This document shows, in pieces, positions 341-20,635 of a stretch of 46,571 bases of DNA. Source of the DNA: Dehalococcoidia bacterium (lineage in GTDB: Bacteria > Chloroflexota > Dehalococcoidia > Lucifugimonadales > UBA3495). The number at the start of each line of letters is the position of its first letter. Position 1 is the first letter of the stretch. The position numbers and the translations under genes were made by a program. The notes under the pieces are model-generated. The model saw only the letters and a program-made list of their open reading frames with translations, was not told the origin of the DNA and made no database searches. The stretch lies in contig JASLXV010000013.1 in NCBI GenBank assembly GCA_030740155.1, positions 1 to 46,571 of the forward strand, read 5' to 3'.

Positions 341-1612
341 TCAGAGGCCGGCGGCGCCGTTCCTCTCCGCTAGATTGAACAAACGCCTGACCACCGCCAC
401 GTACTCCTCATCCCCCGGCGTATCCTTCATCGAGCGAAAGGGGTGGTGCAACAGCTTCTTGACAATGGCCCGGCTCATCATCTCCACTGTTTGCCGATCC
501 TCAGCGCCCAGATGGGACAGGTCGCGAAGGGCGCGGGCCAATTCCTTCTCCCGCACTTCTTCCGCGGATCGCTGAATCTCTTTGATGGTGGGGAGAATGG
601 GGAGAGACCTCCACCACGACACGAGTTGGCCCACCGCTTCTTCGACAATCTCCTCGACCCTCACGACCTCGAAGCGTCGCTGGTGAAGGTTGCTTTGGGC
701 CAAGTACTTGAGCCGGTCGATGTTATATAGATGCACTCCGGGAATTCCGGCCACGGCAGGCTCGATGTCTCTGGGCACCGCGATATCCACCAACAGCAGG
801 GGCGCATTCGCCCGGCGCTCCATGGCCCTTGCGATGTGCTCGAAGCTGATAACCGGCTCTGTCGCGCCCGTGCCGCTCACGACGACGTCGACCTGGGTAA
901 GTACATTCCCCAAAGAGGAGAACGGGATTACCGTACCCCCGATGTCGGCCGCCAGCTCTCGCGAGCGCTGGTCCGTCCGATTGCTCACGAAGGCCTCGGC
1001 CGCACCCGACCCGAGGAGGGCCCGGGCGCTCAACATTCCCGCTTTGCCCGCTCCGACTATCAGTACCCGGCGGCCTTTCAGAGACCCCAGGACCTGTTTC
1101 GCCAAGCCGACGGCGACGCCCGGTATCGAGGCGCCGTGTCGTGCGATCGCGGTCTTGGCCCGGACCCGGCGTCCGACCCTGATGGCGTCGGTAAACAGCT
1201 GGTCCAGCTCCTTTCCTTTGCTCCCGGCCGCCTCCGCCATCCTCGAAGCGTCGGCGACCTGGCCCAGAATCTGAGACTCGCCAACCACCATGGAGTCGAG
1301 TCCCGCCGCCACTCGGAAGAGATGCCGCACCGCCTCCGGTCCGGCGTAAGCGTAGACGTACGGTGAAAGATCAGCGGGAGAGATGCCGCCCCAGGAGCCG
1401 AAGAATCTCCGGAGGCCGTGGAGGGTAACCTTTCCGGAGGAAACCGCGTAGAGTTCCATCCGGTTGCAGGTGGACAGGAGGGCGGCCTGGCAGCTATCTC
1501 GCAGGGAGCCCAGGACGCCATTGACCCGGTCCTCGCAGAGGGCCAGGCGTTCCCGCAGCTCAATGGGCGCCGAGAAGTGGTTCACCCCCACCACCAAGGG
1601 GGCGCCTACCAT
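341..1612 (-). CDS. hemA: Glutamyl-tRNA reductase
   Basis: GVNH..AP..LRE start, catalytic STCNR, GESQILGQV, NADPH-binding GAGKAG, DIAVPRDI. Start placed at ATG 1612 rather than the ORF-track start 1687. Confidence 0.95.
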   Translation of the reverse strand: MVGAPLVVGVNHFSAPIELRERLALCEDRVNGVLGSLRDSCQAALLSTCNRMELYAVSSGKVTLHGLRRFFGSWGGISPADLSPYVYAYAGPEAVRHLFRVAAGLDSMVVGESQILGQVADASRMAEAAGSKGKELDQLFTDAIRVGRRVRAKTAIARHGASIPGVAVGLAKQVLGSLKGRRVLIVGAGKAGMLSARALLGSGAAEAFVSNRTDQRSRELAADIGGTVIPFSSLGNVLTQVDVVVSGTGATEPVISFEHIARAMERRANAPLLLVDIAVPRDIEPAVAGIPGVHLYNIDRLKYLAQSNLHQRRFEVVRVEEIVEEAVGQLVSWWRSLPILPTIKEIQRSAEEVREKELARALRDLSHLGAEDRQTVEMMSRAIVKKLLHHPFRSMKDTPGDEEYVAVVRRLFNLAERNGAAGL

Positions 1613-1670
1613 GGCGCAACGCTCTTCCGTCCCGTCAGCGGGAGGGTTCAGGCCGGCCTGGGCGGTCGAA

Positions 1671-3293
1671 TCAATTCCAGTGATCAATTGCTTCCGGCAG
1701 ATGGCGCAGGGCGAACTCCAGCGTTATGACGGGCACAGCCTCCAGGCGCGCTGCCTTCTCGATCCGAAGCCGGGCGCGGCTTCGCCGCCGGTCGTCCGGA
1801 ATACGCCGGAGCTGCTCCAGGGCGGCTCGCGCCCACCGCAGAGACCCTCCGTCAAAGGTCGCTTGGGCCTGGCTGCCACCCTGTTGCCGGGCTGCGGCCT
1901 CCAGGGTGTCTGGCTCCACCACGAGGAAAGTCTCGCCCTCCTCCTGGCATACTGGGCAGATTACGGGCCGGTTCTTCCGGGCTGCGTGGCCGCACTGGCG
2001 GCACAGGTAGACCGTTCCGGCCTCTTTGCGAAGCGCTTCTACCGCCACGGAGAGGGCAGCCTCTTCCACGTTTGATTTCTCACGGCCTGATTTCTCACGC
2101 CGACCCGGCCGCATGGCCGCCACGGCCTCCCCGACAAGGGATGCGGACACAACGCTATGCCCCTGCTCCCGGGCCAGCCGCTGCACCAGCATTCGCAACG
2201 CGCCCCGGTACTTCTCGGGAACGTGGCCCATGGCAGTCTCTGCCTCGCCGGTCCACCGCAGCGTGGACGAACTCCACATCTCCAGAGGCGGGCTGTACCG
2301 CTGGCTCGCCACCAGGAGGTTGCAGGGGGCGAAGCGCAGGAGATGCTCGGTCACGCTCCCGATGTCCACTTCCGGGCTGCTGTGGGAGCCGATGCGTCCC
2401 ATCAGCAAGAGCCAGGGTTTGACCTTCTCGGCATAGGCCAGCACTTCATCGGCGGCCCGGCCCGTTAGCAGTGTGGTTTTCATACTCACACCTTGGGCCT
2501 CGGCCACGCTCTGGGCGACTTCCAGGTAGGTCTGGTAAAGCCGCGCCAGCCCGGTGTCGATGATCTCTTCATGGAGCTGCTCCTGCTCCTTGAAGCGAAA
2601 CAGACGCGCCGCCTCTTCGGAGAGCACCTCCACCATGCTGTGAAAGACCGCGTAGTGAAAATAGGGGTCGAAGGCCGCCACCGTCTCCACCGGACGCCCG
2701 TAGGCTTTCCCCAACGCCAAGGCCGCTTGCAGGGCGCCGAAGGCCTCCTGGCTTCCGTCCATGGCCACGACAATGGGCCTGCCGACTCCGTCGGCGAAAA
2801 CCTCCGGCTCTTTGATCACCAGGGTGTCGGTGCGGGTCCCCCGGAGCACCCGCTGGGCCACGCTTCCGACGGTGTCCGGCCGGCTGGTCCCATGCCCCCG
2901 GGCCCCCAATACCACCAGGTCGTAGTTCGAGCTGGTGATGTCTTCTACCAGGCACTCCCAGTTCTTCCCCTCGAAAGTCTTCCGGCTGAAGGGGACTTCC
3001 GCCTCCCGGCAGCGTTCCTCCAGGGCATCCAGGTAACTCTCGGAGATGAGCTGAAGGCCCAGGGCGATCAGTGAATCGTGGATGGCCCGTTGGCGCTCCA
3101 GCTCTTCGTCCACCAGGTACTCTTCAGGGAGGGTCGTCTCCATCTGACGGAACCGCCGCTCGTGCATCCGAGCGGCGTACACGTGGCTCCCCACCAACTC
3201 TCCCCCGAAGGCTTGGGCAAGCGACACGGCGGCCGTGGAGCAGCCCTCGCTGAAGGGCGAGTTGTCCAGAGGAACCAGAATCCGCTGATACAC
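1671..3293 (-). CDS. Multidomain universal stress protein (2x Usp + PCP_red-like helical domain + rubredoxin-like CxxC..CxxC + PCP_red-like domain)
   Basis: YQRILVPLDNS and IVVAMDGSQEA Usp starts, GSV..VL / GSVTEHLLRFAPC Usp ends, W(T/A)xxA..L..(V/I)P helical repeats, CRQC..CPVC. Start placed at GTG 3293 after GGAAAGGT. Confidence 0.85.
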   Translation of the reverse strand: MYQRILVPLDNSPFSEGCSTAAVSLAQAFGGELVGSHVYAARMHERRFRQMETTLPEEYLVDEELERQRAIHDSLIALGLQLISESYLDALEERCREAEVPFSRKTFEGKNWECLVEDITSSNYDLVVLGARGHGTSRPDTVGSVAQRVLRGTRTDTLVIKEPEVFADGVGRPIVVAMDGSQEAFGALQAALALGKAYGRPVETVAAFDPYFHYAVFHSMVEVLSEEAARLFRFKEQEQLHEEIIDTGLARLYQTYLEVAQSVAEAQGVSMKTTLLTGRAADEVLAYAEKVKPWLLLMGRIGSHSSPEVDIGSVTEHLLRFAPCNLLVASQRYSPPLEMWSSSTLRWTGEAETAMGHVPEKYRGALRMLVQRLAREQGHSVVSASLVGEAVAAMRPGRREKSGREKSNVEEAALSVAVEALRKEAGTVYLCRQCGHAARKNRPVICPVCQEEGETFLVVEPDTLEAAARQQGGSQAQATFDGGSLRWARAALEQLRRIPDDRRRSRARLRIEKAARLEAVPVITLEFALRHLPEAIDHWN

Positions 3294-3300
3294 CTTGACG

Positions 3301-3726
3301 CTACCTTTCCGTCGCCGGCTGGCCGAGCAGCGACGATAACATCGGCACAAGTTCCGTGCCCACCCGGTCCTTGGTGATGAAGCCGGCGGCTCCCAGATCG
3401 GCGGCCACCTGCCGTTGCCCTGGCTCCTCCACCGCCGTCATCATCAGGATCGCGGCTGATGGGCATTCTTCCTTGATTATCCTGGCAGCTTCAAAGCCGT
3501 CGATGCCCGGCATCCTGATGTCCATCAAAACGACGTGGGGTTGGTAGTCACGCGCAAGTTGGGTAGCGTCTTCCCCGCTGGCCGCCTCATATATCGACTG
3601 TATATCAAGCTTGTCATCGTAAGAGAGGATCATCGTGGCAAGCATCTCACGGGCTTTCGGGTGGTCGTCCACTACCAGCACCCGGTAAGATGATCCTCGG
3701 CACCGCCTGTAGCAAGCCATAACCAT
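3301..3726 (-). CDS. Stand-alone response regulator receiver domain (NarL/CheY-like)
   Basis: VLVVDDH, LMDIRMPGIDG phospho-Asp motif, conserved Thr and GFITK. No output domain. Confidence 0.85.
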   Translation of the reverse strand: MVMACYRRCRGSSYRVLVVDDHPKAREMLATMILSYDDKLDIQSIYEAASGEDATQLARDYQPHVVLMDIRMPGIDGFEAARIIKEECPSAAILMMTAVEEPGQRQVAADLGAAGFITKDRVGTELVPMLSSLLGQPATER

Positions 3727-3739
3727 TTTACCCCGTCGT

Positions 3740-4771
3740 CTAGCGGTTCGTTTCGCCGTCTTGCTTCTCCTTTCTCCGTAGCAGCCTCAGCCCCAGGACC
3801 TGGACGATAGCCACTCCAGCGACCACCAGAAGGGGGCTAATGTAGGCGAAAGGCCCCACAGCCTTCTCCAGGCTCAAGAAATACCAGGTGGAAATGGCTT
3901 TCTCGCCCCCCCGCTCCTTGCTGCTTCCATCCCAAGCCGCGAAGGCCAGCGGCATGGTATCGCCGCGCTCAAAGGAGAATCGCTCCTGGGCCCGGGGAAT
4001 GGAGATCACGGTCTTCCAGCCGCCTTCTTTCCTCACTCCCTTGCCGGAGCCGTCCTGCTTCCCCACGTTCACAGAGCTGATGGTGCCGAACCCTTCGGCC
4101 GTGAGCTTCTCCACGGGCGTTTTGGCCTGCAAATCGGGGTTGGCGAGGGAACTGCCCGCCCACCAGGAGGTATGAAATACCTTATTGGCCTCTTCTTTCC
4201 CGTAGTCGGACGCCTCGGCAATCTCACCCGGGCCCCGCCCCGTGAATGGGTACCAGTCCACGGCCATGTTGGGGAACTCGTCGTTTGTGTCGTAGTCACT
4301 GGCGAACTGCCAGTCCGCTTTCCAGTGGTAGATGGTGACCGGGTTGTTCAACTCCCCCATTCCGAAATACGGAATGCCCTTGGTCGACTCGGAGGGAAAC
4401 TGGACGGCAACGGCATCCCGGAAAGAGCCCACACCGCCAATGCTCACGTCTTCACCGGCGTCGTCCCATTCCAGCAAGAATGCAAGCCTGTTATCGTCGT
4501 AGAGCGCACGGGCCGTCACGATTCCCACCCCGGTTTCGTAGGTGCGCGGTTTTACTACCGCCTGGGGCGCCATTGGCACTTCCAGGGAATCCGCCTTTTG
4601 CCACAGGCTGGCCTCGGGATCGTCGGGGACACGGTCTACCTGCTTGGCGATGAGGCTTGCCTTCTGAGCCGACACGCTCCTGGTGAAAGGCCAGACTAGC
4701 CAGCCAACGGCGGCGGCGGAAGACGCGAGCAACATGGATCTTCGACTGATCAGAGATTTTCCGGCGTTCAT
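3740..4771 (-). CDS. nxrC: DMSO-reductase type II gamma subunit (EbdC/NxrC-like heme b protein) with Tat signal and C-terminal membrane anchor
   Basis: SRRSML twin-Arg signal, LEWDD, DAVAVQFP, PYFGMGE (Met ligand), YHWKADWQ, FAAWDGS..ERGGEKAISTW (Lys ligand). C-terminal hydrophobic helix followed by RRK. Located in the nxrAB operon. Confidence 0.8.
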   Translation of the reverse strand: MNAGKSLISRRSMLLASSAAAVGWLVWPFTRSVSAQKASLIAKQVDRVPDDPEASLWQKADSLEVPMAPQAVVKPRTYETGVGIVTARALYDDNRLAFLLEWDDAGEDVSIGGVGSFRDAVAVQFPSESTKGIPYFGMGELNNPVTIYHWKADWQFASDYDTNDEFPNMAVDWYPFTGRGPGEIAEASDYGKEEANKVFHTSWWAGSSLANPDLQAKTPVEKLTAEGFGTISSVNVGKQDGSGKGVRKEGGWKTVISIPRAQERFSFERGDTMPLAFAAWDGSSKERGGEKAISTWYFLSLEKAVGPFAYISPLLVVAGVAIVQVLGLRLLRRKEKQDGETNR

Positions 4772-4777
4772 GGACCT

Positions 4778-5524
4778 CTACCCCCTTTCCGCGGCGGGGA
4801 CAACGAGTGGGCAGGCCTCGCAATCCGGCATTCCTTCTTCGGATGGCTCCACGATGACCGGGTCGCCCACTTCGCCGGGCTCAAGCCCAAACGTTCGCAT
4901 CTCGAAGGTCAGAAACGCCATCAGCAGCTGGCCAATCAGCCCGTACAAGGTACTCCCAGTCCCCGTCTCTAGCTTCTGGACGAACCCAAACGCCCACTGG
5001 CCCAGGTGCTCCCCCAGGAACTTGGCCTGGGCTTCTCTACACACGGCCAACTGCTCTTCCGGGTGCCCTTTGGCGAGAGCGTAGGCTTCCTTGAGGCACA
5101 GAACGTGCATGAACTCCAACTCGACGCCGATATGGTCCAGGCGGTCATTGAAATCCGGGGCCAACTCCTGGCCAAAAGCCCGGTAGAACCCAGCAATGTC
5201 GGCCAGGTTCTGAGATTTCTGGAAAATGTGAGACTGCCCATACTCGGCCTCGTAAGGAGGAAACTCTTTGGAAATAGTATGCCCAAAGGTCCTGACGTAT
5301 TCGGACTCAAGTTCGCCGGGAGAGTAGGACATGATTGCGGGCCTCAAGGCCCGCAACGCCCCGAGGTTGGGCCGGTCCGCCAAGACCAAAAAGCGGTTCT
5401 CCAAATCCGGCAGGCGGCTCTGCAAGAACTCTACCAGGTCCGGGTCTGGGTAAGAGAATGCGGCAGAAATGAACTCGTAGGCCCTGCTCCGGGCCATCGG
5501 TTTACAGCCACAGGTTTCACACAT
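4778..5524 (-). CDS. TorD/DmsD-family molybdoenzyme maturation chaperone
   Basis: PPYEAEY, DIAGFYRAFG, DHIGVELEFM, FLGEHLGQW motifs. Start placed at ATG 5524 (GGGGG RBS), giving an MCETCGC N-terminus. Confidence 0.9.
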   Translation of the reverse strand: MCETCGCKPMARSRAYEFISAAFSYPDPDLVEFLQSRLPDLENRFLVLADRPNLGALRALRPAIMSYSPGELESEYVRTFGHTISKEFPPYEAEYGQSHIFQKSQNLADIAGFYRAFGQELAPDFNDRLDHIGVELEFMHVLCLKEAYALAKGHPEEQLAVCREAQAKFLGEHLGQWAFGFVQKLETGTGSTLYGLIGQLLMAFLTFEMRTFGLEPGEVGDPVIVEPSEEGMPDCEACPLVVPAAERG

Positions 5525-5537
5525 GGCCAACAACCCC

Positions 5538-6812
5538 CTAGATCGCGTTGTAGTGTTTGCCGGGGCGGATATATGTTGGCTCCTCTACCGACACCCGGGC
5601 TATCTCTTTGCCGCTCTTGCTGTACCCCACCACCGTGTCGTTGAACATCTCCCACTTCTTGCCGTTGATGGTGGTTTCAAAGACCTTCTCACCCTCGATG
5701 ATCTCATACCTGAAGGCAATCGTCTGAGAAGCCCGAAATAGTTGCAGCACGGCCAGCAACTCCCTGGAGGGAGCGGAGTATTTCTCGAGGGCCTCGTCCA
5801 CGCCGGGGCCGAACATCTGCCGGAGGTAGGCTCTGGGCGCCCACCGGGGCGGTATGTAGTACCCGTTGGGCTCGGTGCCGAACTGAGGGTAGAGGGGCAG
5901 GGCGATCTTCTCCGTTTTGATGAGGTAGTACAGAGGGTTGTCCCGGTCTTCGACCCAGCTCCCGTCCTCTTTGACCTCGACCAGCCCTTGGAGGCGTATC
6001 TTCCCCACGCAAGCCGCCATGCAGCGGGTCTCCATGGGCTCCCCCTCGGAGATGGGGTCCTTCCCTTCGATGCGGGGGTAGCAGGCGATGCACTTCTCCG
6101 TGACTCTCGTGGTGTCCCGGAACATGGGTTTCTTGTAGGGGCACTGCATGACGCACTTTCGGTAACCCCGGCACCTCTCCTGGTCGATGAGCACGATTCC
6201 GTCTTCTTGGCGTTTGTAGATGGCCTGCCGGGGGCAAGCGGCCAGGCACGCCGGGTAGGTGCAGTGGTTGCACAGGCGCTGGAGGTAGAAGAACCACGTC
6301 TCGTGCTCGGGAAGGGCCGCGGGCATCAGGTTTAGCAGGTCCCGCTGGTCCCGGGAGCCGGTGGCTGTATCCTCGTAGATGTTGGGAGACCGCCACTGCT
6401 CATCGGTGGGTTCGTAACCCAGGGCGACCTCCTCCCGCTGTTCCGAGTGTCTCGCTGCCTCGAAGATGGTCATACCTTCGTAGGCGCCATAAGGCCGCTG
6501 ATCGCCATCCCGCTGCGAAGGGTCCCAGATGGCCTCGCGGCCCGCATCCTGGTGAGCCTGGTCCAGCATACCCAGAAGCCTGGCATCCCAAAACTGGGGG
6601 TAGCCTCCGTAGGGCTTGGTCTCCACGTTGTTCCACCACATGTACTCTTGACCCTTGGAAAAGGTCCAGGTGGCCTTACAGGCCATCGTGCAGGTCTGTC
6701 AAGCGATGCAGCGGTTGGTGTTGAAAACGAAGGCGAACTGCCAACTGGGATGCTTCTCCTGATAGGGGTAGTGCATCTGCCGGCCAAGCTGCCAGTTGTA
6801 CACGTCAGGCAT
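5538..6812 (-). CDS. nxrB: Nitrite oxidoreductase/nitrate reductase beta (Fe-S) subunit, periplasmic NXR type, with in-frame TGA at 6699-6701 (candidate selenocysteine)
   Basis: The frame extends upstream of the ORF-track start to ATG 6812 (RBS AGAGGAG): [45 protein letters not shown], 424 codons in total. Contains QRLCNHCTYPACLAACP, CRGYRKCVMQCPYKK, KCIACYP, CMAACVG and ALPLYPQFGTEPNGYYIPP, typical of anammox/Nitrospira NxrB. Confidence 0.9.
6671..6698 (-). promoter_or_regulatory. Candidate bacterial SECIS element downstream of the nxrB UGA
   Basis: mRNA reads UGA-CAGACCUGCACGA-UGGCCU-GUA-AGGCCA: a perfect 6-bp stem whose apical loop starts with GU, 19 nt after the UGA. Confidence 0.55.
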
Positions 6813-7077
6813 TGGGCTCTCCTCTCTTGATCCAGCCGCGGCTCCATTTATCCCGGACCCGCTGAATTACCGATTGAACGTACTCCTCGCCCCTTTCGTG
6901 GTAGATGCGATGAGTTGCCTGGAAGAATGGGTTTGTGAAAATGGACATCAATTGTCCGTCGTTCCACCCCAAGAGCAGATACTCCTCCACCACGCACTCC
7001 GCCATGTAGTCCGCGTCCCCTTGGGGCAGGGCTATCCCCACCAACTCCATCGGGTCTTGGGGTTCGAAGGCTTTCAC
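6805..7077 (-). CDS. Small protein between nxrA and nxrB
   Basis: 90 aa, tightly packed against both neighbours. DPMELVG...MAECVVEEY...GW...F.NPFF pattern resembles small accessory proteins of type II DMSO-reductase operons. Confidence 0.75.
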   Translation of the reverse strand: MKAFEPQDPMELVGIALPQGDADYMAECVVEEYLLLGWNDGQLMSIFTNPFFQATHRIYHERGEEYVQSVIQRVRDKWSRGWIKRGEPNA

Positions 7078-7079
7078 GG

Positions 7080-10000
7080 TTAGCTCCTCACCCTGGTGAC
7101 GTCGCCCTTTATGTACCTGGCCATGAAGCTGCTCTCGTTGGCGGGTGAGTAGCCTGTGGTCGCCGGCGTCCAGACGCCTACGCCGTCCATCCCCCCTGCT
7201 TCGGCCTTCTCAATCTTTATCAGGGTCTCCTTGGGCACCGTGTTGATGCCGTGGTTGTCCGCTTCAAACCCGAAGATGAAGGACATGAGTGCCTTGGCCT
7301 TGTGAAAGAGGTTGTCCGTCTGGTGCATGGGCATGAGCCAGCTACGGGTGATGCTCTGCTGGGAGCCGTAGCGGAAACTGGACTGATACCCGGTGTCGGC
7401 CGACAAGGCGCGTCCATCCGCGCGGCTCTCGTGGGCCAGCACGCTCCTCTCGGTGGCGATGAACGAAGCGTGCTTCATCATTGTGAAGTTGTAGGGATAA
7501 GCAGGGTTATACTTGACCCGAATCTTCAGCCGGGAGACCTTGTAGAAGTAGTCGTCCTGCTGCCAACCAACATAGGGCCGGTCGGCGGGGTTGGCGTCCA
7601 CGTGCACGTAGTCGCCGTCCGCGATGTCCAGGTCCCGGGCTGCCTGGGGGTTCATGTGGATTTGCCACTCACCCACCCCCGGGCTCCGCTTGTCAACGCG
7701 GTAGGGGTCGCCGAAGTTGTTGCTCCAGATGAAGTTCCAGTCGGTGACTGTCCACTGGGAGTGAACGGTGTGGCGAGACTTGGGGGTGGTGCAGAGGAAA
7801 CGGTAGCCCAGGCCCCAGAGGGGGTTCTCTGTGTTCTTCACCTCAGCCCAGGTCAGCTTGTTGTTGGCCACCGTCCGGAGGTCCGCGTCCTGAACCTTCT
7901 CCAGCAGCATAGCCGGGGTGATGCCGTTGTTTTCCGGGCGAATGAAGGGGTTGGAGGACACGATGACGTTGGGCAGGTAAGGCGTGGCCTCCGGGGCCTC
8001 CCGGTGAACGACGAAGTTTTCGCCATACTCGATGGCCTCAGGGATGTCGCAGTAGGCGTTCAGCCTGCCGGTATCGGTCAGGAAGGGGACGCTTTCGTGC
8101 ACCTGCTCCCAGAAGGCGATCCTCGGGTAGCTCCTGAAGAGCATCAGCGCGCCGCCGCGCACCCCGTATTTCCCGTCCAGGACGTCCTTGGTGGTGTAGC
8201 CATGGCTGGTGGTTGAGGTGTCCAGCAGCCGGTCGATGTAAACGTCCTCGCGCCCCTGCCGGGCGAAGGTCCAGTAATCCTGGAACCGGGGGTCGCCGGT
8301 GAGTTCGGTCAGCTTCTCCGCCACGCCGGGATAGATTTGCAGGTCATCCTTGCTGTCGTATAGTGGCTTGATTCCGTCCTTCCCCCAAATCTGTAAGAAG
8401 GGGTTGGAGCACGAGTTGGTGATCTCCAGGCTCTGGAACTCCATCCAACAGTTGGCGGGCAAGATGAAGTCGGCGTACTCGCACGTGGCGGTCATCTCGA
8501 TGTCTTGAGTGACAATCATGTCAACCTTGGGGTTGACGTTCTTGATGAGTTCGTAGGCCCACTTGGCGTTGTTGATGAGGTTCACGTTAGTGGTCCAAAT
8601 GACCTTGGTTGGCGTGGGCAGGTGGGTCGTTCCGGTGAAAACCTTGCGGCCGAACTTCGGGGTGTCCACAATCAGCGCCTTGTCCCGGTGGGCCCAATAG
8701 CCGACTTCCTCGCCCCGGGCGTAGCCGTGGACATACTCCTTGGTCATCGGCTGGTTCGAGTCCAAGAGGGGATTGAAGGGGTCTTCCGCCACCCAGCCCT
8801 TGAAGCCGGGGCCCGACCACTCCGAACCCTGAAAGTTGGCGGCCTTGTAGTTCCCAGCCCAGGTGTGGGCGCCGCTGCCCGCTATCCCGATGCTACCTAC
8901 CAGCATCAAAGGCAGGTAGGTGGCCCGGTTGTGCAGGGTAGCGTGAAAGTAGTGGTTGATGCCTTCCCCGTAGTGGATGGAGATGGGATAGGCCTCCCTG
9001 GGCTTGCCCATGAAGTCGGGGTCCCAGAACCGCCGGGCGATGTCCTTGGTCAACCGCTCCAACATCTCTTTGGACACCCCGCAAATCTCGTGCACAGTGT
9101 CCATGTCATAGTCCCGGAGGTGAACCTTGTACATCTCCCAGAGGGTCATCACCTCCACCTCGGATCCGTCTACCAGCGTTGCCTTGCCAGTCCACTCCAG
9201 CGCCGGATCGATGCCCTTGTCCGTCAGCGTGTCGCCAACGTCGTCCCGGGTGATCGCCCTGAACCCGTTACTGTTAAAGTCCCATACCACCGGGTCGCCG
9301 ATGATCTCCCGCTGCTCCGATGTTATCCCCTGGATGGTGGAGCTGGGGCCCTTCGTGAGGTCTTGGTTGCTATACCCCGGGAAGATGTCCTTGCCCTTGA
9401 GCCGCTGGAGGGTATCGGTGCGCACCAGCAGCGGGAAATCGGTGTACTGCTTGACGAAGGGCTCGTCGTACCAACCTTTGTCCATGAGGGACTTGGTGAT
9501 GCCCAGAAAGATGCTGGTGTCGGACAGGCCGGGACGCACCGACATCCAGTAGTCGGCCTTGCTGGCGGCGGGGTTGTACTCGGGGGCGATGACCACGAGG
9601 CGCCCGCCCCGCTCCATGATCTCGGTGAGCCAGTGGGCCTCGGGCATCTTGTTCTCGATCAGGTTCTTGCCCACCTGGATGGTGAGCTTGGAGGAGCGAA
9701 CGTCGTTCATATCGATGTCCGAGGTCTGAAGGCCGTGGACGAAGGGATGGCCGGGCGCCTGGTCGCCGTGCCAGGTGTAGTTGGACCAGTTCCGGCTGCC
9801 CAGGGCCTCATCGGGGCCCACTCCACGGATGCGGCTATCCAGAAGGGCCATCATGTTGCTTATGCGGTAGAGCCCGTACTTTCCGATGACGCCCAGCAGG
9901 CCCATGCCGCCCCGGAACTTCATGGTCCGGGTGCCCGCTCCTCCCCAGTGCTCCAGCAACTCGGGTTCGTAGCCGTCTTGGTCGATCAGGCGCCGCCGCC

Positions 10001-10628
10001 CCTCATCGCCGCTGTAGGTCTCGGCGATGGCCATGAGTCCCTTGGCCAGGTACGTGCTGATTTCGTCCCAAGAAAGCCGAACGAACTCGTCGCTGCCTCT
10101 GGAGTCGAATTTGTACTTGGTGCGCCGGCTCGGGTCGTCGGAGAGAGAGAGGAATCCTTCGTCGGCCCACTGCTTCCATCCCTTGCGGACCATGGGATAC
10201 CGCAACCGGTATGGCCCGTATACCCGCCGATGGAAAGTGTAGCCTTTCAAGCACATACGTGGATTCCAGGCTTGCGTTGCCTGGTTGCCGTACAGGTCCT
10301 TGTAGTTCTGGTGCTCGTAAGGTTGCTCCACCCGGGTCACCACGCCGTTGCGGACGAAGGCCTGGATTCGGCACGCATGGGTATCGTTGGGAGAGCAGAC
10401 ATAGGTGAAAGAGCGGTCGTAAGAGTACTGGTTGCGGTATACGTCCTCCCAGGCCCGGTCGGGATAGTACTCCAGCGGGTTATCGATTTGGGCGACCGGC
10501 CTGAGGTTGCGCCCCGCGAAGACCGGCTCCGCATCTAGACCCCGAAGCACACCCGCCGCCGCCACGCCCCCAGCAAGGGCGCCGGCCCCTGTGAGAAACT
10601 TTCTTCGGCTTATCCTACTGTCCGCCAA
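7080..10628 (-). CDS. nxrA: Nitrite oxidoreductase/nitrate reductase alpha (Mo-bisPGD) subunit, Tat-exported, anammox/Nitrospira type
   Basis: TTG start after GAGGTG. SRRKFL Tat signal, FS0 motif CSPNDTHAC...RMCLKG with Asp ligand, NWSNYTWHGDQAPGHPFVHGLQTSD (Mo-ligating Asp), GKNLIENKMPEAHW, WAGNYK, TPKSRHTVHSQW, FRYGSQQSITR. Confidence 0.93.
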   Translation of the reverse strand: MADSRISRRKFLTGAGALAGGVAAAGVLRGLDAEPVFAGRNLRPVAQIDNPLEYYPDRAWEDVYRNQYSYDRSFTYVCSPNDTHACRIQAFVRNGVVTRVEQPYEHQNYKDLYGNQATQAWNPRMCLKGYTFHRRVYGPYRLRYPMVRKGWKQWADEGFLSLSDDPSRRTKYKFDSRGSDEFVRLSWDEISTYLAKGLMAIAETYSGDEGRRRLIDQDGYEPELLEHWGGAGTRTMKFRGGMGLLGVIGKYGLYRISNMMALLDSRIRGVGPDEALGSRNWSNYTWHGDQAPGHPFVHGLQTSDIDMNDVRSSKLTIQVGKNLIENKMPEAHWLTEIMERGGRLVVIAPEYNPAASKADYWMSVRPGLSDTSIFLGITKSLMDKGWYDEPFVKQYTDFPLLVRTDTLQRLKGKDIFPGYSNQDLTKGPSSTIQGITSEQREIIGDPVVWDFNSNGFRAITRDDVGDTLTDKGIDPALEWTGKATLVDGSEVEVMTLWEMYKVHLRDYDMDTVHEICGVSKEMLERLTKDIARRFWDPDFMGKPREAYPISIHYGEGINHYFHATLHNRATYLPLMLVGSIGIAGSGAHTWAGNYKAANFQGSEWSGPGFKGWVAEDPFNPLLDSNQPMTKEYVHGYARGEEVGYWAHRDKALIVDTPKFGRKVFTGTTHLPTPTKVIWTTNVNLINNAKWAYELIKNVNPKVDMIVTQDIEMTATCEYADFILPANCWMEFQSLEITNSCSNPFLQIWGKDGIKPLYDSKDDLQIYPGVAEKLTELTGDPRFQDYWTFARQGREDVYIDRLLDTSTTSHGYTTKDVLDGKYGVRGGALMLFRSYPRIAFWEQVHESVPFLTDTGRLNAYCDIPEAIEYGENFVVHREAPEATPYLPNVIVSSNPFIRPENNGITPAMLLEKVQDADLRTVANNKLTWAEVKNTENPLWGLGYRFLCTTPKSRHTVHSQWTVTDWNFIWSNNFGDPYRVDKRSPGVGEWQIHMNPQAARDLDIADGDYVHVDANPADRPYVGWQQDDYFYKVSRLKIRVKYNPAYPYNFTMMKHASFIATERSVLAHESRADGRALSADTGYQSSFRYGSQQSITRSWLMPMHQTDNLFHKAKALMSFIFGFEADNHGINTVPKETLIKIEKAEAGGMDGVGVWTPATTGYSPANESSFMARYIKGDVTRVRS

Positions 10629-10670: not shown

Positions 10671-11438
10671 TTACCTGGGCGTGTGGCCCGTTTCGTCATA
10701 CAGGTACACGATGACCTTCCACGCCTCGTCCGATGACAGGTCATTGGAGTGAAGTGTGGAGGCGTCGGGTTCTTGGTCTGAGGCCACCCAACGGGGCATG
10801 GCGCTATTGAACTGGTTCTGGATGCCGCCGGTGGTCAGCCTCCAATAAACGTAGGGAAGCGTAAGCTGGGCAATGGTGCCCGGGTCTTGGAAGCTGGCGG
10901 GGCGAATGGGATAGCGAAAGCCCTCGGCGGCCGGGCCTTTGCCATCCAGTCTTTCCCCGTGGCATATGGCGCAGTTGCCCCCGTAAAGGAGTTTTCCTTC
11001 CTCAACAGCCGCTGGGCTCCAGTTGGCCGGCTCCGCCGCCCATTCCGGCACCTCAATGCGGCTCAGGATTTCTTCACCCGCGGTGGGGTGCCGCTGGAAG
11101 ATCTCCACGGGCGGAGAGTAGCTGGGACGCATGGCGCCATAGACTCCCCAACCCAAGACCAGCGGAACCACCAGAAGCAGGATCCAGCGTTGTGCCCGGT
11201 GTGTTGCGGTGTCATTCGCGGTTCCAACGAAAAAGTCCCGGAACCGCTGCATCCGGCCATCATCCAGGGTAACATGGATGATGACGCCGGCAATCACAAA
11301 CCCCATGTACAACAAGATAATGCTGCCTGGGAACACGGGCCGGACGAGCTTCAGCAGGACGAACATCCCGGCCAGGACCAGGAAAGCGCCTACGGGCAGG
11401 GGCACGTTGCGGGCCCAGGATGGAAGGCCGGGCCTCAT
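10671..11438 (-). CDS. Membrane-anchored monoheme cytochrome c
   Basis: Three N-terminal hydrophobic helices, CAICHG heme site, NSAMPRW distal Met. Confidence 0.85.
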   Translation of the reverse strand: MRPGLPSWARNVPLPVGAFLVLAGMFVLLKLVRPVFPGSIILLYMGFVIAGVIIHVTLDDGRMQRFRDFFVGTANDTATHRAQRWILLLVVPLVLGWGVYGAMRPSYSPPVEIFQRHPTAGEEILSRIEVPEWAAEPANWSPAAVEEGKLLYGGNCAICHGERLDGKGPAAEGFRYPIRPASFQDPGTIAQLTLPYVYWRLTTGGIQNQFNSAMPRWVASDQEPDASTLHSNDLSSDEAWKVIVYLYDETGHTPR

Positions 11439-12280
11439 TGTCCACCTCCAGAGGAAAGAAGATAATCGAGCAGGGCTTCAAGTTGTCCGGCGGTCATCTG
11501 GTCACCGAAGGTCGGGGGCATGACGCCGGAGAGGGTTCCCTCTTTTTCGAAGGCGCCGGGGTTCACGATGGACTCTATTACGTAGGCCCTGGGGCTCACC
11601 CCTCGGCCCGACGCTGTGTCCTTGAGGCTAGCCGCGTCCAGGGCCGGTCCCACCAGCACCACGCCAGGATCCAGGCTGTGGCAATTCCCGCAGTTGAACG
11701 CGGTAAAGATAGCCACGGGGTCTTTGACCGACGCTTCAACTGGCGATGCGCCGCCGGTGGCGGCCACTCCACCCGCCGTATCCCCTGATGGCCTGGGGAT
11801 GTCGCCTAATTTCGCCGAGGGCGTTCCTCCCAGAGACTGCAGGTAGTTGACGACCGCCACGATCTCTTCGTAGGTAAGTTTTGCCGGGGCGCTCGTGGCC
11901 GCCGGCATTATGTCGGCATACCCTTCCACCAGGTAGGCGCCCGGCTCGTAGAGGGCCTGGGCCAGGTATTCGACCAGGTCGCCGGGTCCTCCATCTACGC
12001 CCTGGGCCCTTCGGGTGGCCAGGCCGGCCCAGTTTGGCCCCCGGCCTCCCCCTTGAACCCCAGACCCGGGCTCGATCGTGTGGCAGGCCAAGCAACCCCG
12101 CTGGAGCGCGATGGTCTGGCCGACATCCGCCAACTGGGCCGGGGTCATGCTCGCGCCGATGTCCTGTTTCTCAGGGGGGTCCCATTCCGTCTGAGGTATC
12201 CAGTTGGCGAACCAGACGAAGAACCCAAGGATAATCAGGGCCGGGGCGGTGGCCACCGCGTACTGCCGAACTCGCGTCAT
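11435..12280 (-). CDS. Membrane-anchored diheme cytochrome c
   Basis: N-terminal TM helix, CLACH and CGNCH heme sites, each followed by an MP distal Met. ATGA overlaps with both neighbours. Confidence 0.88.
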   Translation of the reverse strand: MTRVRQYAVATAPALIILGFFVWFANWIPQTEWDPPEKQDIGASMTPAQLADVGQTIALQRGCLACHTIEPGSGVQGGGRGPNWAGLATRRAQGVDGGPGDLVEYLAQALYEPGAYLVEGYADIMPAATSAPAKLTYEEIVAVVNYLQSLGGTPSAKLGDIPRPSGDTAGGVAATGGASPVEASVKDPVAIFTAFNCGNCHSLDPGVVLVGPALDAASLKDTASGRGVSPRAYVIESIVNPGAFEKEGTLSGVMPPTFGDQMTAGQLEALLDYLLSSGGGQ

Positions 12281-14049
12281 GCCCGCTCCCCCGCAGCCTG
12301 CAACCGCTGCCCTCTGCTTGCCTCGGCCTCTGCTTCAACCACCGGGTCCCTTCCCATCATGCCGGAGATGGCGAAGGAGACGGCCAGCAGGGCGAAGAAG
12401 ATCAGAGTAATCAACGTTATGACGATGGCGGCCTCGCCGAGAGACGGAAGACCAGCCCCGGCGGAGGTGTCTTCCATGATGCCGAAGACGTGCCAGTTGA
12501 GGCGGACGCCACTCCTCGCGTAGCCCATGAGCCCCATGAGCCAGACGATGACGAAAGCCAGGGCTATGAGCACGTACTGGCCCCGCTGGGGCATGCTGCC
12601 CCATCGCACCGCGGCCACCGTCTGCGACCCCCGCAACAGGAACACGTCCAAGGTAAAGGTGAAGGCGATGCCGATCATGAGGACCACGATCTGCAACACA
12701 GACGTGTCGATCCGCGTTTCTGCCGAGGAAAAGTAGCCGACCACCCCCAGTACCGTGATAGCCACTGCGGTCAAGCCCAGAGCGCCCCACTGGATGATGT
12801 TCCCGGTGCGGCTCCACGGAACGGTCAGAACCCGCCCGGCCCGGCGGTAGAGGAGGTAGCTGGCGTAGAGGACCACCAGGATCAGGGTGACGGCGATCAT
12901 CTTGGGGGCCATAACCCCCAACGCCCCCAGGATGGGGTGGAAACCGCCGGTGGACTCCTCAATGGAGGCCGCCATGGTGTGGGGGGTCGCCCACACCATG
13001 AACCCGACGATAAGGACGACGTTGAAGACGGGGGTCCACTTCCGCTGGGCCTCAGAGCCGGGGATGCGGATGAGGCCCAGCCAGGCGTAGTAGGCCGCGC
13101 CGATGAAGAGGACGGCGATGACGATGGCCTGGATTATGAACAGCCAGGAGAGAACCCCTCCCATGAGGGTCACACCGTAGGTGGCAGAGTAGGAAAACAG
13201 CTCGAAACCGAAATAGTAGCCTACAAAAGGCAGGAAAAGCATGGTGAACAGGGCAATGAGGTTGCCGGTGTACCCCATCCAGTCGTAGAAAGCCCGGTCC
13301 TCTTCCCGTTCCGCGGCAATGAACCGGTAGGCGGCGTAGGCCCCTGCCAACAGGGCGCCGAGGGTGATGTTGGCCACCAGCCGGTGGATATTGAGGGGCA
13401 TCCAGCCCGGGTTCCACACGGCGTTATACAGGCTGGTCAGGTTGCCTACCTCGTCCACGCCGCCGGGGGTCATCATAAAGGTGGCCCAGGAGTCGGCGGT
13501 GAACAAGATGGCGGTGCCAAAGATGTTCAGGGCCAGCCCGAGCAGCAGGTGGATCCATTTCTTGTTGCCTTGAAGCTGGTTCCAAGAGTAGTAGTAGAAA
13601 TAGAGGGAAAAGGTCTCGGCGAGGAAAAACAACGGGTAAACCCACATGGTGGGCCCCATAATGTCCGTAAGGTAACCCATGAAGCGCGGGTACAGGGTAA
13701 AGAGCAGGATAGCCATCATGGCACCCAGTATCGCCGTGATGGAAAAGGCCGGGGGCAGCAACCGGGCCATCTCGTGCGCCAAGCGGTCGAAACGCTTTTC
13801 CTTGCGGCGCCAGCCCATGAACTCGATGACCAGGGCGAACATGGGCACCGCCAGCACGAAAGCGGCGAAATTCAAGTGGAGCTGGGCCGCCATCCACACG
13901 GCCAGCCGGCTGCCGACGCCCGCAAGCTCCCGGTATTCTCCGGTAGGTGCCGGCCCCTGGGCCCAGACAGTCCCCGTCCCCAGCAGCAGCAGCAGGGCCG
14001 CCAGCGACAGTGCTAAAAAGAGCTTCCACGTCCGTTTGACGAACATCAT
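12277..14049 (-). CDS. CydA-like (cytochrome bd subunit I-like) integral membrane cytochrome b; probable quinol-interacting module
   Basis: Many TM helices. QLHLNFAAFVLAVP and PLNIHR His motifs align with CydA. The canonical GRQPW is replaced (GVRLNW) and the operon has no cydB. Resembles the bd-like proteins beside NXR genes in anammox bacteria and Nitrospira. Confidence 0.8.
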   Translation of the reverse strand: MMFVKRTWKLFLALSLAALLLLLGTGTVWAQGPAPTGEYRELAGVGSRLAVWMAAQLHLNFAAFVLAVPMFALVIEFMGWRRKEKRFDRLAHEMARLLPPAFSITAILGAMMAILLFTLYPRFMGYLTDIMGPTMWVYPLFFLAETFSLYFYYYSWNQLQGNKKWIHLLLGLALNIFGTAILFTADSWATFMMTPGGVDEVGNLTSLYNAVWNPGWMPLNIHRLVANITLGALLAGAYAAYRFIAAEREEDRAFYDWMGYTGNLIALFTMLFLPFVGYYFGFELFSYSATYGVTLMGGVLSWLFIIQAIVIAVLFIGAAYYAWLGLIRIPGSEAQRKWTPVFNVVLIVGFMVWATPHTMAASIEESTGGFHPILGALGVMAPKMIAVTLILVVLYASYLLYRRAGRVLTVPWSRTGNIIQWGALGLTAVAITVLGVVGYFSSAETRIDTSVLQIVVLMIGIAFTFTLDVFLLRGSQTVAAVRWGSMPQRGQYVLIALAFVIVWLMGLMGYARSGVRLNWHVFGIMEDTSAGAGLPSLGEAAIVITLITLIFFALLAVSFAISGMMGRDPVVEAEAEASRGQRLQAAGERA

Positions 14050-18709: not shown

Positions 18710-19972
18710 TCAGGAACCGGGGCCCTGCCCATCGTCTCCGGGTGCTCCGGCGGCGCCCTGGTCCGAGGGGCGCCGCCAGGGCATCCTGCCCATTTCGGAC
18801 ATCAATCCTTGGATTAGTTCCACTGTGACCACATCGTCTCCCCGGCTGCGGGCCCGTTCCTCTATGGCCCGCTTCACCCTCGACCGGATGAACCCCGGCG
18901 CCCGCTGAATCCGCGACTGGGCTTCGGGTGTCCAATCCAGCTCTCGCGGTGCGGCCGCCAAACCGCCAACAGGCTGATAGTCGCACCAGGGGTCTTCACC
19001 GAGGTAGTCGCCCGTCGTGGCGAAGGCACGAGCGCGGCAGCCGACGCACCCGTCCGCGAACTCGCACACCCCGCATCGTCCCGCAAGCTGGGGTCCGCGC
19101 AACGCCTTGAGGTGGCGCGAGCCCTCCCATATCTGCCGGAGGGTGTATTCCTTAACGTTGCCCGCCACTAGGGGCAGGTAGGGACAGGGTGTAAGGTCTC
19201 CTCTGGGGGTGATCCGGCAGTAGCTGGTCGCCGCCATGCAGCCCGCGCTTCCCAGCAGCGAGGAGCCCTGCTGAGCCGCTATTCTGGTGAAATGCGGGGC
19301 GCACCGGGCGCGGACCATCATTCCAGGGTAGTGGTTCTGGGCCTCCACCAGGTATTGGAGGGTCTGCTCGTACTGCCCCGGAGTGATGTCGGTGAGCTTT
19401 TCGCCCCGCCCGGTGCACACCAGAAAGTAGATCATGACGCCTTGCACCCCCCTTGCGGAGGCGAATTCGAGGAGCTGAGGTAGCTGCGCGCAGTTCCATT
19501 GGGTGACCGTGGTGTGCACCAGGACGCCGATGCCCGCCGCCTGGCATTGGTCGATTCCCGCGACGGCCCTGGACCAGGCGCCCGGAAGACCCCGGAATGA
19601 GTCGTGTTCCTCGGGGGTTATCGCGTCCAGGCTTATGCCGACGCTCATCACGCCGCTATTGGCCAGCCGCTTGGCCACCGTCTCGGTGATCAGGATGCCG
19701 TTACTTCCCATCACCACGGCTATGCCTTTCTTCGAAGCGCACTCGGCGAGGTCGTAGGCGTCGGCGCGGAGGAGCGGTTCACCTCCGGTGAGGATCAGCA
19801 TTTCCGTCCCCATGTCGGCCATCTGGCCGATCAGGTCCAGCCCCTCGGCGGTAGTCAACTCATCCTTGCCCACCTTGGCGGCGGCAAGATAGCAATGGTC
19901 GCAGGCCAGGTTGCAACCCGAGGTTATGTTCCAGGAGATGAGCCGGGGCTTATACTCAAGAGTCTCGTGCAC
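18710..19972 (-). CDS. Radical SAM/SPASM protein, AhbD/NirJ-like (heme biosynthesis), with C-terminal PCP_red-like domain
   Basis: WNITSGCNLACDHC, TGGEPLLR, RCAPHFTR, GCMAATSYCRI...PCPYL, CGVCEF..GC.GCRARA...GDYLGEDPWC, then a WTPEAQSRIQRAPGFIRSRVK tail. Confidence 0.8.
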   Translation of the reverse strand: MHETLEYKPRLISWNITSGCNLACDHCYLAAAKVGKDELTTAEGLDLIGQMADMGTEMLILTGGEPLLRADAYDLAECASKKGIAVVMGSNGILITETVAKRLANSGVMSVGISLDAITPEEHDSFRGLPGAWSRAVAGIDQCQAAGIGVLVHTTVTQWNCAQLPQLLEFASARGVQGVMIYFLVCTGRGEKLTDITPGQYEQTLQYLVEAQNHYPGMMVRARCAPHFTRIAAQQGSSLLGSAGCMAATSYCRITPRGDLTPCPYLPLVAGNVKEYTLRQIWEGSRHLKALRGPQLAGRCGVCEFADGCVGCRARAFATTGDYLGEDPWCDYQPVGGLAAAPRELDWTPEAQSRIQRAPGFIRSRVKRAIEERARSRGDDVVTVELIQGLMSEMGRMPWRRPSDQGAAGAPGDDGQGPGS

Positions 19973-19987: not shown

Positions 19988-20635
19988 TTAAGGATGGTGA
20001 AACCCGGCCCCGCCGCCCCAAGAGCCCTTGGCTTCCTCCACAAGCTCCGAGGTGATCTCGCCGGCCCCCTTCCGCTGGGCGTGCGCCTCAATGGCCTCGA
20101 CCACCATCCCCCTGACAAAGGGCGGGATGCGCTCGATCCGCTCCAGGGCCTCGGCGCTCCAGCTCATCTCGCTGGTGGCCTTCTCCGAGCCGCTGGACCA
20201 CTGATCGTACTTCTCCTCCATCAGGGCCACGGTCACTATCGCCTCTCCTCTTCGTTTGGCCAGGTGCTCCACCCTTTGCCGGGTTAAATCGCGCATGATG
20301 CCCTCGGGCACCCGCCCCAAACGGGCCGCTGCCTCCGGAGTCCAATCCAGGTCCTCAACGGTGGACCCGCCGGTTGGCTCAGGAGAGGGCCGGCCGCCCC
20401 GCTGGTGCCGGCCGGCATCCAGGGATTGCTCCATCGGGGGAGAGGGATCATTCCCACCACCCCCCATCTGAATCCCGATGGCGCCAGCCAGTTCCGTTTC
20501 GCCGGGATTCGTCAGGAGGCCCACCTGGGCCCCGCAGGTCTGGCAACTGAAGGTCATCGCTGGGGAGCCTTCATCGGGGTCCCTGTTCTCCAAGCGTTGC
20601 ATCGGCGCGTCGCACTTTACGCAAAGGAGTTTCAA
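19988..20635 (-). CDS. Zn-ribbon + tandem PCP_red-like domain protein
   Basis: CVKC...CQTC, LTNPGET, then WTPEAAARLGRVP and WSAEALERIERIPPFVRGMV repeats. TTG start after GAAAGGAGG. Confidence 0.8.
   Translation of the reverse strand: MKLLCVKCDAPMQRLENRDPDEGSPAMTFSCQTCGAQVGLLTNPGETELAGAIGIQMGGGGNDPSPPMEQSLDAGRHQRGGRPSPEPTGGSTVEDLDWTPEAAARLGRVPEGIMRDLTRQRVEHLAKRRGEAIVTVALMEEKYDQWSSGSEKATSEMSWSAEALERIERIPPFVRGMVVEAIEAHAQRKGAGEITSELVEEAKGSWGGGAGFHHP

Follow-up and report, generated by a model that had tools for sequence, protein, structure and literature searches.

Does a single in-frame TGA in the gene of a respiratory iron-sulfur protein end translation, or is it read as selenocysteine (Sec)? 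The gene in question is the nxrB-type gene of a Dehalococcoidia bacterium, which encodes a beta subunit of the nitrite oxidoreductase (NXR)/nitrate reductase (NAR) family and lies in a window of 46,571 nucleotides, i.e., the whole stretch of DNA analysed here (contig JASLXV010000013.1 of assembly GCA_030740155.1, positions 1 to 46,571). An earlier note on this DNA had read the gene as coding for a selenoprotein, with a hairpin downstream of the TGA acting as its selenocysteine insertion sequence (SECIS). Our analysis supports this reading: the TGA is real, the genome carries the Sec machinery, the hairpin resembles that of the selD gene, and a second lineage bears a TGA in the same motif. With insertion itself a prediction from these features, we consider it probable that UGA38 of nxrB is decoded as Sec. 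The elements on which the argument turns are the following.

6699..6701, minus strand: in-frame TGA, codon 38, candidate selenocysteine codon in a ligand column of iron-sulfur cluster FS1 (NarH Cys19); from the translation, the contigs of 4/4 runs and the NarH alignment.
6671..6685, minus strand: SECIS-like hairpin UGGCCU-GUA-AGGCCA with a 6-bp stem and a GUA triloop (6679..6677), starting 13 nt after the TGA; present in the minimum-energy fold (ViennaRNA).
5538..6812, minus strand: nxrB-type beta subunit gene, read through one TGA, 424 codons plus stop; from the translation, a match to PDB 7b04_A and Fer4 dicluster domains.
6817..6826, minus strand: purine-rich ribosome-binding stretch GAGAGGAGAG ahead of the ATG at 6812..6810; read directly from the sequence.

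The nxrB frame opens, as the earlier note had it, at ATG 6812 behind a ribosome-binding site (the purine-rich stretch 6826..6817), and it runs to a stop at 5540..5538 with exactly one internal stop, the TGA. Its product matches NXR subunit B (PDB 7b04_A) with an E value of 4.6e-191 over residues 4-424, and further structure matches were obtained with 4ydd_B, 2ivf_B and 1q16_B; this full-length similarity to solved NxrB/NarH proteins is that of an NXR/NAR-type (type II dimethyl sulfoxide (DMSO) reductase) beta subunit. The operon likewise has the partners of this enzyme type, namely a molybdopterin alpha subunit, a NarJ-type chaperone and a haem subunit. On sequence grounds the enzyme may serve either nitrite oxidation or nitrate reduction. 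In the motif C35-x2-C38-x2-C41-x3-C45, the TGA takes the place of the second Cys; the set of FS1-FS4 ligands is thus not all-Cys, the second FS1 ligand being TGA, while C35, C41 and C45 of the first motif are present. Residues 25-76 align without gaps with residues 6-57 of E. coli NarH, and U38 lands on NarH Cys19, which bears out the placement of the lone stop on the second Cys of the first ferredoxin motif. In NarH, the FS1 ligands are Cys16, Cys19, Cys22 and Cys263, and Cys26 is a ligand of FS2, according to a table in PMC5338063.

We then asked whether the codon is real. The window stretch was found in 20 public runs from 12 studies, all seawater or marine, and contigs from all four runs examined (four studies; X2 and X9 from DNA, X15 and X17 from RNA libraries) cover 6699-6701 with 0 differences, the TGA allele being the major one in each. 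The metagenome contig L134, in which 4/4272 bases differ from the window, carries the identical TGA. The codon is therefore TGA and not TGC or TGT, and a base-call error, which had been kept as a caveat, is excluded. TGA terminates 825/2104 long open reading frames (ORFs) of the genome, which indicates a standard genetic code in which TGA has not been reassigned. Minor contigs about 90% alike in X9, X15 and X17 carry TGC at codon 38; for the one shown from X15 the alignment is limited to a conserved stretch, and these contigs may stem from a sister strain or from other organisms. Single-nucleotide variants of the main-lineage nxrB comprise four synonymous changes and one conservative change (S255T). 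Contig depth increases at 6559-6680, by a factor of more than 100 in the DNA runs and of about 27 and 43 in the two runs from RNA libraries; this segment encodes QEYMWWNNVETKPYGGYP, which is near-invariant in DNA across the NXR genes of many organisms, so depth there is uninformative for this organism.

The host is equipped for Sec insertion. A tRNA-Sec with anticodon TCA (69.4 bits), SelA, the SelB wing domain and SelD, the last with an in-frame TGA of its own, are all present in the genome, which settles in the affirmative the machinery check that the earlier note had proposed, and SelD with one TGA was found in 37/41 relatives of the family and order. By its quality figures the assembly has a contamination of 7.65%. 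The LigA encoded in the window is the only copy in the genome and shares 80% identity with that of a same-genus genome, approximately 70% with those of the family and 50-63% with those of the order; together with a tetranucleotide correlation of 0.992 between contig and genome, this assigns the contig to the Sec-using lineage.

The hairpin lies where the earlier note had placed it, 13 nt after the UGA with its loop 19 nt after, and the minimum-energy fold contains it. If the U of UGA is numbered 1, the loop has its G at base 23 and its U at base 24; in the fdhF SECIS of E. coli, the loop bases that are essential are G23 and U24 on the same numbering. The bacterial SECIS (bSECIS) model, as given in the legend to Fig. 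2 of PMC13188914, specifies a loop of 3-9 nt, an upper stem of 4-16 bp, a G in the first two loop positions, a spacing of 16-37 nt and an energy of at most -7.5 kcal/mol. With its GUA loop, 6-bp stem, 19 nt spacing and -7.8 kcal/mol, the window hairpin passes this model, marginally as regards energy.

The shape of the hairpin was also compared within the genome and its relatives. A stem of at least 6 bp with GU in a 3-6 nt loop at bases 22-31 follows the TGA in four of the five other selenoprotein candidates of the genome, against a background of 97/8920 Cys codons, 1095/90,719 sampled codons and 11/824 true TGA stops. In most of 30 relatives, the selD SECIS of the lineage shows the same shape, its 8-bp stem being capped by a GUN triloop, which is GUA in three of them (L254, L255, L262). 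A GUN triloop on a stem of at least 6 bp at that distance is found after 9/8920 Cys codons, 756/897,674 codons and 0/824 stops, ratios that are inflated since the stricter hairpin criteria were chosen after the hairpins had been seen. Among 146 distinct homologue DNAs, the hairpin criterion, likewise chosen once the data had been seen, picks out three when counted from column 38 (the window, L074 and L165) and three when counted from column 35 (the window, L165 and L189). The suggestion that the hairpin is a by-product of the underlying codons stands in part, in that the homologues have Cys and the stem is favoured by A-C-K-A codons, yet the hairpin is no common feature of these genes (3/146 DNAs, the window included). 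As to the selD elements themselves, in the order (L242-L271) the loop G lies at base 31 from the UGA and the third loop base varies freely; in L252 both stem strands appear to have changed together, and the distant members L250 and L266-L271 have a different loop or a different hairpin.

Homologues place the TGA in an otherwise constant column. Codon 38 is TGC or TGT in 80/80 loci of GTDB species-representative genomes, and among 80 metagenome loci the motif is covered in 78, with Cys at column 38 in 77 and TGA in one (L134). The in-frame UGA is therefore aligned with Cys of the homologues, as in known selenoproteins. Across all 175 homologous loci, in-frame stops are solely TGA and occur solely at column 38 (the window and L134) and column 35 (L189 and L192); one other gene in this set is split by a frameshift. 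In an order-wide sample, 12/401 genomes gave a strong NxrB match, and a stop was seen only in the window copy. Counted over single-base paths, a random nonsense change would strike a Cys codon with P = 15/185 and C35, C38 or C41 with P = 3/185. The search for independent TGA/Cys pairs advised in the earlier note thus had a divided outcome: among these loci no diverged orthologue has TGA at column 38, and a second lineage has it at column 35.

This second lineage is represented by L189 and L192, two metagenome loci from different collections with 70% identity to the window protein. In both, the TGA (L189:1603-1605 and L192:1603-1605) occupies the first Cys of the same motif (FNINR-TGA-IACQTC), which corresponds to the NarH Cys16 column. 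The two loci differ at 59/3390 bases (1.7% divergence). Beyond the TGA, 11 of the differences are synonymous and 5 non-synonymous, giving a pN/pS of 0.13 (binomial 1e-4 versus neutrality), similar to the neighbouring nxrA part (0.03) and narJ-like part (0.10); the gene of this lineage is thus under purifying selection although it bears the TGA. Their 90% cluster has 20 members, and among the 15 listed there are 11 distinct intact 367-aa forms (eight variable sites) and one 424-aa Cys form. A hairpin with a 7-bp stem and a CGUA loop begins 12 nt downstream of the L189/L192 TGA; on this sequence evidence, each TGA lineage has a SECIS-like hairpin placed for its own TGA.

Shortened protein calls bear on how such genes appear in databases. 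As predicted by the earlier note, annotation treats the gene as truncated, the public gene calls giving 382 or 367 residues. The contigs with shortened calls, 17 for P0124 and 10 for P0125, show no frameshift or extra stop; P0062 is the one exception among the shortened calls. Three further shortened calls with 71-81% identity (P0016, P0094 and P0141) begin at Met43 or Met58 and, judged from the protein calls alone, might be further TGA lineages; another shortened form, P0162, is merely a fragment at a contig edge. P0062 (367 aa, on a JGI contig of 20,445 bases) matches the window protein for about 300 residues from Met43 and then shifts repeatedly out of and into frame, which looks like indel sequencing errors rather than decay.

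Several observations weigh against decoding as Sec and have to be set beside the evidence above. As regards the hairpin, -7.8 kcal/mol barely clears the cut-off of -7.5 kcal/mol, and 786/8810 Cys codons (8.9%) pass the same loose model. Over the 62 nt that follow the TGA, the folding energy is unremarkable (z = -0.50), and 111/160 homologue rows fold at least as well in this region, so overall fold energy cannot carry the SECIS argument. The full 6-bp hairpin is present in 2/158 Cys-bearing rows (L123 and L165), where it can be ascribed to A-C-K-A codons that favour the stem, and at least four contiguous pairs are found at the hairpin site in 21/158 such rows; the L189 hairpin fails the energy cut-off if only the contiguous stem is scored. 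As regards the codon, TGA38 is confined to one near-identical population, without a diverged orthologue that has it; the nearest Cys forms are 89% identical (P0002), and P0134, a Cys form of 424 aa, equals the window protein apart from S23R, W24R, T32I and U38C. This near-identity implies a young TGA allele, for which the intact remainder of the gene says little. There are six non-synonymous sites among the shortened protein calls of the window lineage (S255T, T364K, A366V, T415I, G418D and Y421S), a count made at the protein level. An all-Cys paralogue in the same genome (on C20, 71% identity) has its own alpha subunit, and loss of the window copy could therefore be tolerated. The RNA-library contigs (X15 and X17) covering nxrB prove neither transcription nor read-through. 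Finally, Chicano et al. 2021 (PMC8387239) describe FS1-FS4 of NXR-B as clusters with cysteine ligands only that are conserved across NXRs and NARs.

Many of these points converge on one rival explanation, in which a single TGC-to-TGA change inactivated a redundant, acquired nxrB copy and then spread through drift or hitch-hiking, while the hairpin arose by chance from the A-C-K-A codons. The all-Cys paralogue, the Cys allele four residues away, the Cys in all other homologues and an energetically marginal hairpin that also occurs in Cys homologues L123 and L165 all agree with it, and a serine recombinase gene at 23212-25110 together with proteobacterial relatives at 83% identity would fit a dispensable island. 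However, this explanation requires two coincidences in each of two lineages, a stop that falls exactly on an FS1 Cys and a hairpin of SECIS shape with suitable spacing, while a GUN triloop hairpin follows just 9/8920 Cys codons. It also has to contend with the pN/pS of 0.13 that the second lineage holds past its TGA, with a TGA allele that is major in all four runs, and with the absence of frameshifts or extra stops in the contigs of P0124 (17) and P0125 (10), given that the shifts in P0062 look like sequencing errors. We regard a nonsense allele as rather unlikely on this balance.

Passage of the UGA without selenium, whether a near-cognate tRNA (Trp or Cys) reads the codon or translation restarts at Met43 or Met58, would leave a non-ligand residue in FS1 or remove its first three ligands. 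A UGA followed by C is a leaky context, and gene callers do give ORFs from Met43 (P0125) and Met58 (P0124), but no Shine-Dalgarno-like stretch precedes either Met and re-initiation would cost 3/4 FS1 ligands. Loss of FS1 impairs maturation. The PDB entry 3egw_B, which is NarH with Ala at residue 16, also speaks against such passage, and in a genome with full Sec machinery and a SECIS-shaped hairpin behind the codon Sec is the more economical assumption; we consider selenium-free passage highly improbable. A sequencing or assembly error, or use of UGA as a sense codon, is refuted for practical purposes by the same codon in 4/4 runs and L134 and by the 825/2104 long ORFs that end in TGA.

Decoding as Sec is thus the reading that we prefer, and its predicted course can be outlined. 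As the gene is translated, codons 43-48 (M-A-C-K-A-T) would form the hairpin and so place the GUA triloop 19 nt past the UGA, where SelB carrying Sec-tRNA(Sec) would bind it and bring Sec to the A site, yielding a full-length NXR/NAR-type beta subunit. Its selenolate, along with Cys35, Cys41 and the distal Cys, would then ligate FS1, the [4Fe-4S] cluster adjoining the catalytic subunit. We infer in this way Sec insertion, the binding of iron by Sec and altered properties of the cluster. The conversion from Cys to Sec looks recent. Beyond the single gene, we offer tentatively, as possible rather than probable, a wider scenario in which marine Dehalococcoidia/SAR202-like bacteria would have converted an FS1 Cys to Sec at least twice in a periplasmic-type enzyme, using hairpins nearly pre-formed in the coding sequence; the Se-ligated cluster would tune electron transfer beside Mo, and the enzyme would depend on selenium, with the UGA serving as a selenium gate on expression.

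Known systems offer partial precedents. NXR subunit B of Kuenenia stuttgartiensis (PDB 7B04) resembles the window protein in its N-terminal motif and in its operon partners (molybdopterin alpha subunit, NarJ-like protein and EB_dh haem b subunit), but it has Cys38 where the window has TGA. On E. coli NarH (PDB 1Q16 chain B), U38 of the window falls on Cys19 and the TGA of the second lineage on Cys16; in contrast to the window protein, NarH is of the cytoplasmic NAR type, has 512 aa and no Sec, and only its conserved parts align. FdhA and NxrA share the molybdopterin superfamily. In FdhA and [NiFeSe] hydrogenase, Sec directly ligates the redox metal of a respiratory enzyme, as proposed here, but it does so at the catalytic metal of the large subunit, whereas the Sec of the window protein would sit on an electron-transfer cluster of a ferredoxin-like subunit. 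Ligation of Ni by Sec is mentioned in PMC13188914. Closer in this respect are predicted selenoproteins with Sec at Fe-S-binding positions, among which PMC13188914 (2026) names an Fe-S cluster domain protein (UxxC), CopZ-like 2Fe-2S proteins and the ferredoxin HgcB. Like the window protein, they have Sec in place of Cys in a metal-cluster motif and are known from sequence alone, but they belong to protein families different from NxrB; Sec in Fe-S-binding motifs is thus already known as a kind, from prediction. The main text of the same 2026 review of prokaryotic selenoproteomes, to which this statement is confined, contains no nitrate reductase, nitrite, NarH, DMSO, dicluster or 4Fe-4S. Nor did a literature search that combined selenocysteine with nitrite oxidoreductase and with SAR202 turn up Sec in the NXR/NAR family, although an entry under another name may have escaped it.

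If our reading is correct, this would be, as far as the literature search shows, the first reported selenium-containing enzyme of the NXR/NAR family. Respiratory electron transfer would then include a naturally occurring [4Fe-4S] cluster ligated by selenolate, a system in which spectroscopists and enzymologists could study the effect of Se on Fe-S clusters, and selenium availability would be tied to a nitrogen-cycle enzyme of a population that occurs in seawater metagenomes from 12 studies. Surveys of nxrB would score genes shortened to 382 or 367 residues as broken or miss their Fe-S motif. In addition, a young allele alongside a near-identical Cys allele would offer an unusual chance to observe the replacement of Cys by Sec while it is under way, a change that a hairpin already in place may have made possible.

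The remaining genes of the operon and its upstream neighbours are arranged as follows.

7080..10628, minus strand: nxrA-type molybdopterin alpha subunit, 1182 aa, free of internal stops (PF00384).
4778..5533, minus strand: NarJ-like chaperone (Nitrate_red_del domain).
3740..4771, minus strand: haem b gamma subunit of the ethylbenzene-dehydrogenase type, NxrC-like (EB_dh domain).
10671..14049, minus strand: two genes for c-type cytochromes and one for a cytochrome bd-like subunit I, lying upstream of nxrA (domain matches).

Close NxrB homologues sit in metagenome-assembled genomes labelled with many different phyla, and the best GTDB match is proteobacterial-labelled, with 83% identity. A gene for a large serine recombinase (Recombinase and Zn_ribbon_recom domains; 23212-25110, plus strand) lies between the nxr region and the housekeeping genes ftsH and ligA. 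On the strength of this recombinase and the proteobacterial-labelled match, the nxr cluster is probably a second, horizontally acquired operon of the genome. Three genes near the operon contain a PCP_red domain (1671-3350, 18710-19972 and 19988-20635, minus strand), one together with universal stress protein domains, one with a radical SAM domain and one alone, as two matched stretches. The genome has three homologues of hemA (glutamyl-tRNA reductase), at 341-1687 (minus strand) in the window, C68:24982-26211 and C8:24870-26201; the window copy is merely 40-44% identical to that of any relative, and with three divergent copies in the genome hemA was of no use in assigning the contig taxonomically.

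Elsewhere in the window no further Sec candidate came to light, and none of the 13 molybdopterin genes of the genome has an internal stop. A coding-potential screen for selenoprotein genes proved too strict, missing both nxrB and selD. A paralogue-based screen gave 304 rows, mostly off-frame, from which those with a Cys aligned in the best match were kept; a DUF3179 candidate, whose best match did not align Cys, was added from it by hand. Five further genes with an in-frame TGA inside a Pfam domain were obtained for the genome: SelD and thioredoxin-like/NHL, deiodinase-like, thiolase-like and DUF3179 proteins. The Pfam domain spans the TGA in the thioredoxin-like/NHL-repeat candidate (C-U-I-N-C, C95:42307-42309, L238:508-510), in the deiodinase-like candidate (T-U-P-P-F, C20:1405-1407, L239:706-708) and in the DUF3179 candidate (W-U-P-L-C, C93:22655-22657, L241:756-758). 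In the thiolase-like gene, the TGA (C25:26308-26310, L240:1209-1211) lies in EFYD-U-YT, with Cys in a paralogue, and Thiolase_C_1 covers residues 244-374; a hairpin of 7 bp with the loop CGUGU follows the TGA, and the gene possibly encodes a thiolase-like selenoprotein.

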